From the sequence record PV659873.1: a DNA stretch of 64,000 nt; one strand, given 5' to 3'. Of the stretch, positions 25,330-25,872 are shown one piece after another. The DNA comes from Escherichia phage WPEC1. Under the pieces are notes generated by a model. The model did not search any database. It was not told where the DNA came from and saw only the letters and a program-made list of their open reading frames with translations. Each line of letters begins with the position of its first letter. Position 1 is the stretch's first letter. Both the position numbers and the translations under genes were made by a program.

Positions 25330-25872
25330 TCACAAATATCGTCTTTGCGGTATTTTGTCTGGGAATAGTATTTCGATCAGTTTATTATGATATTTACCTA
25401 AAAGATTCTGCCCTTTCCAGGTGGCAGGGTTTAGCACCCCTGGTTCATACATCCCCATTCCAATTCCGTAAACCTTATCGTAGGGGCTTGCTTCAACAAA
25501 CGTTTTGTATTGGTAAAGGTGTAAGTCTGCATACAAATCTGGATTCTGTACATATTTCAAGCATAAACCTCGCATAACAATACGCTCACGGTTCTCTTCC
25601 CATACATTGTTATCAAAATCCGACACTGCCCTACCCATACGTTTGTAATAAGCTTGGATCTTCTCATCTTTCCGTATCGAACTATGAGTCAGAATAGCCT
25701 GTGCAGTGTTGTGGTCATTAAAAAGCAAAGCTTTACGCCACATCATGTATTGCTCAACACAACAGAAAGTCTCATTGTAACCTGGTTCGGTTTCTGTAAA
25801 GGGTGCAATATACCAATTACTAAAAACATCTTTATGTGAAAAGAAGAATACATAATCATCAGTTATTCGCAT
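25330..25872 (-). CDS. NADAR-family (YbiA-like, DUF1768) protein
   Basis: FFFSHKDVFSNWY, FCCVEQYMMWRKALLF, and C-terminal N..LGK.. region fit the NADAR fold signature. Confidence 0.7.
   Translation of the reverse strand: MRITDDYVFFFSHKDVFSNWYIAPFTETEPGYNETFCCVEQYMMWRKALLFNDHNTAQAILTHSSIRKDEKIQAYYKRMGRAVSDFDNNVWEENRERIVMRGLCLKYVQNPDLYADLHLYQYKTFVEASPYDKVYGIGMGMYEPGVLNPATWKGQNLLGKYHNKLIEILFPDKIPQRRYL

Follow-up and report, generated by a model that had tools for sequence, protein, structure and literature searches.

The gene on the minus strand at positions 25330 to 25872 of the 64,000-nucleotide stretch of Escherichia phage WPEC1 analyzed here (sequence record PV659873.1; hereafter the window) encodes a protein of the NADAR family. 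It is probably an orphan NADAR that acts as a guanine-DNA ADP-ribosylglycohydrolase and counters the toxin-antitoxin defence DarTG1. The source phage is Phapecoctavirus-like and belongs to subfamily Stephanstirmvirinae. We consider its NADAR gene the positional orthologue of the gene for AdfN^Bas60, since Bas60 has a sole NADAR, the two proteins are 58% identical and both genes occupy the same position. An earlier reading of this DNA from its sequence alone (the sequence-only reading) had proposed an anti-DarT role, which is supported because the closest relative outside the genus has direct experimental precedent. That the 58%-identical WPEC1 allele has the same activity, and the same use in natural infections, is what we infer.

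The precedent comes from Johannesman, Carlson and LeRoux (Nat Commun 2025; PMC11825919). The T4 protein gp30.3 (AdfN) was reported to be an orphan NADAR that strips the ADP-ribose made by DarT1 from phage DNA (PMC11825919; preprint PMC11257639). Two unrelated phage NADARs, AdfN^Bas32 and AdfN^Bas60, were reported there to neutralize DarT1 in uninfected Escherichia coli and to bring phages RB69, T5 and Bas25 back to full titre on a DarTG1 host; on a DarTG2 host neither protein rescued T5 (PMC11825919). In the phylogeny outlined there, AdfN^Bas60 groups with NADARs that are of neither the YbiA nor the DarG1 type, and NADARs are described as having been recruited by phages several times (PMC11825919).

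Bas60 to Bas62 are phi92-like phages, now classified as Justusliebigvirus, a sister genus within the same subfamily. We compared 150 kb of the record MZ501100 of Bas60 (Escherichia phage PaulScherrer) by tblastn and by a search of all six frames with a family hidden Markov model (HMM). A single NADAR was found, bas60_0111, annotated as 'putative YbiA-like N-glycosidase', which is 58% identical to the WPEC1 NADAR over 172 residues. The order of genes is shared as well: an AAA ATPase, a CapR-repeat endonuclease-like gene and NADAR as the last gene, followed in Bas60 by a gap of ~1.3 kb of conserved sequence. The proteins are of similar length (183 amino acids (aa) in Bas60, 180 aa here) and have the same PADLOC and Pfam matches. 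They differ in genus, in 42% of their residues and in a 7-aa insertion at about residues 27–35 of the Bas60 protein, and, unlike in Bas60, NADAR is separated from the endonuclease-like gene in the Phapecoctaviruses by two additional small genes (62 and 121 aa).

Membership of the product in the NADAR family is firmly established. The open reading frame (ORF) starts with ATG and encodes 180 aa on the minus strand, as the sequence-only reading had it, and both motifs from which that reading had recognized a YbiA/NADAR signature, VFFFSHKDVFSNWY and EQYMMWRKA, are present. That reading had staked itself on a significant NADAR profile match, and the match to Pfam PF08719 (NADAR/DUF1768) is decisive (E = 1.1e-35, 123.8 bits against a cut-off of 35.1, residues 11–161 aligned with profile positions 3–154 of 163). 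The product also matches TIGR02464, riboflavin biosynthesis intermediates N-glycosidase (E = 1e-32, 113.5 bits against a cut-off of 73.7), a domain-level model that does not separate YbiA from other NADARs. The sole solved structure found by plain sequence search was the Phytophthora nicotianae NADAR in complex with ADP-ribose (PDB 8BAU, E = 8e-15). The score with NCBIfam NF053876 (NADAR anti-phage protein DS32_2) stayed at 16.5 bits, below the cut-off of 240. The PADLOC HMM for component C of PDC-M42 (PDC-M42C) matches the protein at E = 9e-36, in keeping with descent from bacterial conflict systems; the surroundings of two bacterial homologues, in a prophage-like region of Burkholderia and in a Kofleriaceae locus, showed no consistent partner gene.

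The fold and the active site agree with this assignment. An AlphaFold2 model, built from an alignment of 58 homologous sequences, has a mean predicted local distance difference test (pLDDT) value of 95.3 and a predicted template modelling (pTM) score of 0.89. When it was compared to the PDB by Foldseek, the only significant matches were 8BAU (E = 2e-9, template modelling (TM) score 0.79) and E. coli YbiA, 2B3W (E = 2e-6, TM score 0.66). The structure prediction, which had been suggested as a check of the family call, gave a confident model whose YbiA-like alpha/beta fold and active-site residues match those of solved NADARs. The residues of the Phytophthora protein (PnNADAR) reported to contact ADP-ribose or to take part in catalysis are E43, K50, K75, G78, R79, Y84, D86, W89, R93, E125, D130 and W133 (PMC11543638, Schuller et al. 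2023). By alignment with 8BAU, the equivalents in the WPEC1 NADAR are E40, K47, K77, G80, R81, F86, N88, W91, R95, E127, D132 and Y135. Among the 58 homologues E40, K47, G80, W91, E127 and D132 are invariant, K77 and R81 nearly invariant, and R95 invariant or nearly so. The catalytic Glu and Lys (E40 and K47) and the second acidic residue (E127) align to E43, K50 and E125 of PnNADAR. The gene is under purifying selection, with a ratio of nonsynonymous to synonymous substitution rates (dN/dS) of 0.13 relative to the allele of phAPEC8_ev052.

A likely mechanism can be outlined from these comparisons. Host DarT1 would attach ADP-ribose to the N2 of guanine in single-stranded phage DNA and so block replication. 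The phage NADAR would hydrolyze the guanine N2-ADP-ribose adduct during infection, and with the adduct removed replication could proceed in hosts that have the DarTG1 toxin-antitoxin defence. The protein would in effect be a phage-borne stand-in for the DarG1 antitoxin. A search with Pfam and PHROGs found no ADP-ribosyltransferase (ART) among the native neighbours, which are an AAA ATPase, the CapR endonuclease-like gene and genes for proteins of unknown function only. Among these neighbours the NADAR thus stands without an adjacent DarT toxin, that is, as an orphan. The idea that it confers immunity against an ART of the phage itself was dropped, because there is no ART among the native neighbours.

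DarG1, from E. coli C7 and from Geobacter lovleyi, belongs to the same superfamily and has the same proposed reaction. In the C7 protein E88, K95 and K115 are equivalent to E43, K50 and K75 of PnNADAR (PMC11543638), and thereby to E40, K47 and K77 of the WPEC1 protein. The phage gene departs from DarG1 in that no darT1 adjoins it and in having Glu in place of the catalytic Asp (D171 in C7). The best structural matches, 8BAU and 2B3W, share only 29% and 22% identity, respectively, with the phage protein. The ADP-ribose-contacting residues are conserved in them, and both hydrolyze guanine-ADP-ribose in vitro (PMC11125620, PMC11543638). Both are cellular proteins, unlike the phage NADAR, and YbiA is a housekeeping N-glycosidase of riboflavin intermediates that gave no rescue from DarT1 in cells (PMC11125620).

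AdfN^T4 (gp30.3, from Tevenvirinae) resembles the WPEC1 protein in being a phage orphan NADAR that counters DarTG1 by removal of ADP-ribose from DNA. The two sequences show no similarity that BLASTP could detect (E = 4.5) and only a marginal match by profile (hhalign probability 19%, 19% identity), and AdfN^T4 has His where the WPEC1 NADAR has Glu (E127). AdfN^T4 reportedly reaches full activity only during T-even infections and, unlike AdfN^Bas60, does not neutralize DarT1 by itself (PMC11825919). It was recruited from a different branch of the NADAR family, and the lack of a detectable sequence relation agrees with the published view of several-fold NADAR recruitment by phages.

Several points weigh against this role of the WPEC1 gene. 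Direct evidence of activity comes from the orthologue only, and the evidence on AdfN^Bas60 is from ectopic expression; in the text consulted, mention was found neither of a deletion in Bas60 nor of a DarTG1 phenotype of Bas60 itself (PMC11825919). The two proteins are 58% identical, and their differences cluster near the ADP-ribose and the probable DNA-binding region, at residues 52–93. YbiA and T4 gp30.3, both active in vitro, failed to rescue DarT1 toxicity in cells (PMC11125620). The WPEC1 protein has Glu (E127) where the antitoxins associated with DarT1 have Asp. Lastly, NADARs act also on guanosine-ADP-ribose in RNA (PMC11833690) and on cytidine-ADP-ribose (PMC12945103), and DarT1 therefore need not be the natural or the sole target.

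This last point leads to the rival explanation that survives best, namely that the chemistry is the same and the target different or broader, the base adducts of a non-DarT1 ART being reversed and the reversal of DarT1 adducts being incidental. We regard it as unlikely. Candidate targets would be guanosine-ADP-ribose on RNA, cytidine-ADP-ribose, the products of pierisin/ScARP-like or YarT-like toxins, and those of uncharacterized ART defences. Several NADAR subfamilies clear guanosine-ADP-ribose from RNA (PMC11833690), and cytidine-ADP-ribose is also cleared (PMC12945103). A YbiA-type NADAR was reported to be the antitoxin of YarT, an ART other than DarT (PMC11125620). The match to PDC-M42C (E = 9e-36) is to part of a candidate defence system of PADLOC, E127 is a Glu of the YbiA type and not an Asp of the DarG1 type, and the possibility was reportedly raised by the authors of the AdfN paper themselves. 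However, the one orthologue tested was reported to counter DarTG1 fully in vivo (PMC11825919), no other ART defence against these phages is known, and nothing in the locus points to RNA.

A related proposal concerns variation among the alleles. The WPEC1 and phAPEC8_ev052 proteins differ at 15 amino acids, 14 of them within residues 52–90, and residues 52–93 (window positions ~25594–25719) are the most variable segment in other Phapecoctavirus alleles too. This segment surrounds the conserved ADP-ribose contacts K77, G80 and R81; in DarG1 the residue equivalent to K77 is required for rescue from toxicity and dispensable for catalysis. The variable segment could be a recombination patch or a surface that determines specificity. 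It is conceivable, and in our judgement rather improbable, that Phapecoctavirus NADAR alleles diversify at surface residues ~52–93 to track different host ADP-ribosyltransferases or substrates, so that the protein would be more than a DarTG1 countermeasure and would act against a wider or different set of ARTs. Such alleles may be directed at divergent variants of DarT1, at ARTs that modify RNA or cytidine, or at the ART of the uncharacterized PDC-M42 candidate system.

The sequence-only reading had also mentioned an N-glycosidase of riboflavin intermediates, which turns out to be the weaker of its two readings. A housekeeping enzyme of the YbiA/COG3236 type that destroys reactive intermediates of the riboflavin pathway underlies the annotations 'GTP cyclohydrolase II' and 'ribA/ribD-fused', and relatives of the gene are labelled 'GTP cyclohydrolase II', 'COG3236' or 'YbiA-like N-glycosidase'. 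The score with TIGR02464 is well above the cut-off and the YbiA-type Glu (E127) is present. Against this, the family profile, which among solved chains at E ≤ 1 found only the Phytophthora NADAR and YbiA and no DarT1-associated NADAR, scores the Phytophthora NADAR at 1.2e-35 versus 2.4e-16 for E. coli YbiA. No riboflavin gene is fused to the gene or neighbours it in the native block of the window, in WPEC4 or in phAPEC8_ev052, and why a lytic phage would have to control riboflavin damage is not evident. AdfN^Bas60 reportedly lies outside the YbiA group in the published tree (PMC11825919), and even YbiA hydrolyzes guanine-ADP-ribose in vitro (PMC11125620). We therefore hold a riboflavin-related function to be quite improbable.

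A part in the NAD+ and ADP-ribose economy of the phage itself, in which the protein would recycle or detoxify adducts arising from NAD-consuming enzymes of the phage, seems still less probable. Bas60 does encode a macrodomain protein, a sirtuin, NAMPT and PRPP synthetase, and the name of the NADAR family reportedly refers to its link with genes for NAD and ADP-ribose (PMC11125620). Those four genes, though, all lie far from the NADAR gene in Bas60, and a tblastn search of the window found no macrodomain, phosphoribosyltransferase, sirtuin, NAMPT or PRPP synthetase. The native block holds no phage ART, and the orthologue was reported to work alone in uninfected cells (PMC11825919). That the gene is an inactive or decaying passenger, as its terminal place in the block beside an endonuclease-like, mobile-looking gene might suggest, is scarcely credible against a dN/dS of 0.13, a full set of intact catalytic residues, full length in ~70 relatives and a confident model.

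If the WPEC1 gene is the DarTG1 countermeasure proposed here, Phapecoctaviruses carry such a measure ready for use, as does the phi92-like sister genus, and the gene would help in predicting their host range among DarTG1-positive strains. Members of this group of E. coli phages are under study for phage therapy. The novelty of the gene is low: the find is real but ordinary, because its 58%-identical counterpart in the sister genus, at an equivalent position, has been shown to defeat DarTG1, and it opens no new question because the mechanism of NADARs and their use by phages were published in 2023–2025. The assignment does correct a widespread error of annotation, since many deposited genomes label the gene 'GTP cyclohydrolase II' or 'hypothetical protein'.

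The gene region is 99.9% identical to that of Escherichia phages WPEC4, WPEC2 and WPEC6 and 93–95% identical to that of many Phapecoctavirus genomes; the protein is 100% identical in WPEC4 and WPEC6. Relatives of the NADAR were found by tblastn in 718 of 50,697 phage records, most of them large myoviruses that infect Staphylococcus, Listeria, Enterococcus, Bacillus or enterobacteria. The full-length protein occurs at no less than 80% identity in about 70 Phapecoctavirus-like records, followed by a 58% group and then by one at ~45%, and Justusliebigvirus proteins are the best matches outside the genus. In related genomes the gene is deposited as 'hypothetical protein', 'GTP cyclohydrolase II' or 'COG3236', whereas NCBI and UniRef already call a 97%-identical cluster 'NADAR family protein' or 'NADAR domain-containing protein, Phapecoctavirus'. 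The exact protein sequence was absent from a collection of 15 billion proteins, in which the 97%-identical cluster is present. Two literature matches for NADAR together with Phapecoctavirus proved to be false positives caused by the author name Nadareishvili.

A Shine-Dalgarno sequence, GGAGAG (25881–25886, minus strand), precedes the NADAR ATG by 8 nt. The region of this ATG overlaps the 3' end of a small upstream ORF, whose end at 25859 lies 14 nt within the NADAR ORF, and the overlap suggests coupled translation of the two genes. About 55 nt past the NADAR stop codon is a terminator-like hairpin on the same strand (25239..25273), consisting of GGCUCCUACAGCACCGUAGAGAGCC (25249–25273) followed by UGUUAUUUUGU. 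Folding by strand gave a minimum free energy of -31.3 kcal/mol (z = -4.83), and none of 200 shuffled sequences was as stable. The hairpin is kept in phAPEC8_ev052 and looks like the terminator of the minus-strand block; a simple terminator scan made no call at this site.

Three genes precede NADAR on the minus strand. The nearest (25859..26047) encodes 62 aa from the ATG at 26047, has no assigned function and matches phrog_22330 (E = 4e-21, residues 13–71); the mechanical ORF reaches 26083, and in the annotation of WPEC4 this gene, which is co-oriented with NADAR, is a coding sequence of 189 nt. The second, also of unassigned function (26061..26426, 121 aa, phrog_24465 at E = 3e-86), is found in WPEC4 and phAPEC8_ev052 and is absent from Bas60. 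Neither small gene has a Pfam match. The third is the 3' part of the CapR-repeat endonuclease-like gene (26420..27021), delimited by blastn against WPEC4 and assigned to phrog_681, 'endonuclease'. The full-length WPEC4 protein (486 aa) has five CapR matches in Pfam (E = 1.5e-27), and a T5orf172 domain was detected only in the 467-aa homologue from Bas60. The ORF at 26420–27112 (230 aa) is chimeric at its 5' end because the junction 27021/27022 cuts the endonuclease-like gene.

That junction is one of many. Compared by blastn to ESCO37, WPEC4 and phAPEC8_ev052, the window lacks collinearity with any reference genome and consists of long segments in scrambled order and orientation, joined by clusters of 80–156-bp fragments that are often tandemly duplicated (examples are 23753/23754, 27021/27022, 5015–5325, 29727–30031, 54990–55298, 56072–56610 and 61826–62290). 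The patchwork looks like an artefact of short-read assembly. The NADAR ORF is unaffected by it, and its product matches those of WPEC4 and WPEC6 at 100% identity, but arguments from gene neighbourhood hold only inside segments. The native context of NADAR is 23754–27021 only; the plus-strand block at 16908–23753, with dTDP-rhamnose, PhoH and HslV genes, is not a true neighbour, and the true upstream AAA ATPase gene is found inverted at 60724–61833. Within the native context, as in WPEC4, phAPEC8_ev052 and Bas60, NADAR does stand at the end of a minus-strand block, as the sequence-only reading had stated, but the adjoining repeat-rich region, which it had called non-coding, holds an 87-aa gene.

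This gene, on the plus strand at 24261–24524, has a GWQGGTVHQV motif, belongs to phrog_19316 and has no Pfam match. Its product is 96% identical to bas60_0113, although the flanking NADARs of Phapecoctavirus and Justusliebigvirus are only 58% identical. It is not annotated in phAPEC8_ev052, and the window copy has a 3-nt deletion just past the start codon. The conservation extends along 24145–24993, which is ~85% identical to Bas60 in nucleotides, whereas this blastn comparison returned no match between the NADAR gene and Bas60.

Directly after the 87-aa gene is a consensus sigma-70 promoter, TTGACA-17-TATACT (24527–24555, plus strand), followed by a GC-rich element of ~90 nt (24527–24650 with the promoter). 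The near-invariant core of the element is CGCCACCCCACGGCGNAAAGGCGGGGCUAAC. A 26-nt core, CCCCACGGCGNAAAGGCGGGGCUAAC, occurs exactly in 15 IMG/VR contigs, nearly all of 120–153 kb (three are fragments of 83–98 kb), and the 266-nt stretch 24525–24790 matches 231 records of Stephanstirmvirinae and Vequintavirinae, mostly without underlying annotation. Among 18 distinct sequences one predicted stem pair of the element is A-U in nine and G-C in nine, with no breaks, and a second has one flip from C-G to G-C. An Rfam scan of the gap gave no match to this RNA-like element, and the whole conserved stretch of 235 nt gave no signal when folded (z = -0.08). In Klebsiella phage KpS8 the element is at ~125.2 kb and NADAR at ~82.4 kb, and a separation of ~43 kb indicates that the two are not functionally tied. 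The element may be an unannotated phage small RNA, an origin-primer transcript, or a replication-origin or regulatory module, and it is arguably more novel than the NADAR gene. In one contig, IMGVR_UViG_2974574029_000001, the conserved sequence 3' of the element gives way, immediately after ...GGATCGCTGGTAC, to a Shine-Dalgarno sequence and an ORF with an ATG start (AAAGGAGGCTAGCAGATGAAAAAAG...), which may be an inserted gene that used the conserved element as its target site.

A second promoter-like site on the plus strand, TTGCTT-16-TATTCT, has two conserved copies of TGTAAAGA just before it (24674–24790 in all). It is followed by a second GC-rich segment (24725–24775) with the invariant sequence ACAAACACC, in which no conserved secondary structure was found by eye. 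Four to five copies of a palindromic box, TGAGAATnATTCTCA, lie at 24780–24880; we take these boxes to resemble Fur boxes (GATAATGATAATCATTATC). Beyond them are AT-rich direct repeats at 24902–25111, one of 72 nt in two copies (82% identity) and one of 29 nt in three copies. The boxes are conserved in Vequintavirinae relatives, the AT-rich repeats less so, and the layout of box array and repeats appears origin-like or operator-like.

Elsewhere in the window, tRNA genes are present at 40052–41484 and 56544–57015 on the plus strand and at 62543–62610 on the minus strand (12 by ARAGORN, 13 by Rfam). In ESCO37 both plus-strand groups are in a single cluster adjoining the spanin and terminase genes; in the window the cluster is split and partly duplicated by the patchwork, with three copies of tRNA-Gln. 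A repeated cassette was also observed. Its hairpin, GGCGGCAATGGTGCCGC(C), is present at 27125–27150 and 27404–27430 on the minus strand, before small early-type genes, and its sigma-70-like promoter, which comes ahead of the hairpin, is TTGACA-16-TAATAT with an upstream TG (promoter at 27459–27432). This cassette of promoter and hairpin has many copies in related genomes, with up to 11 matching places per record.

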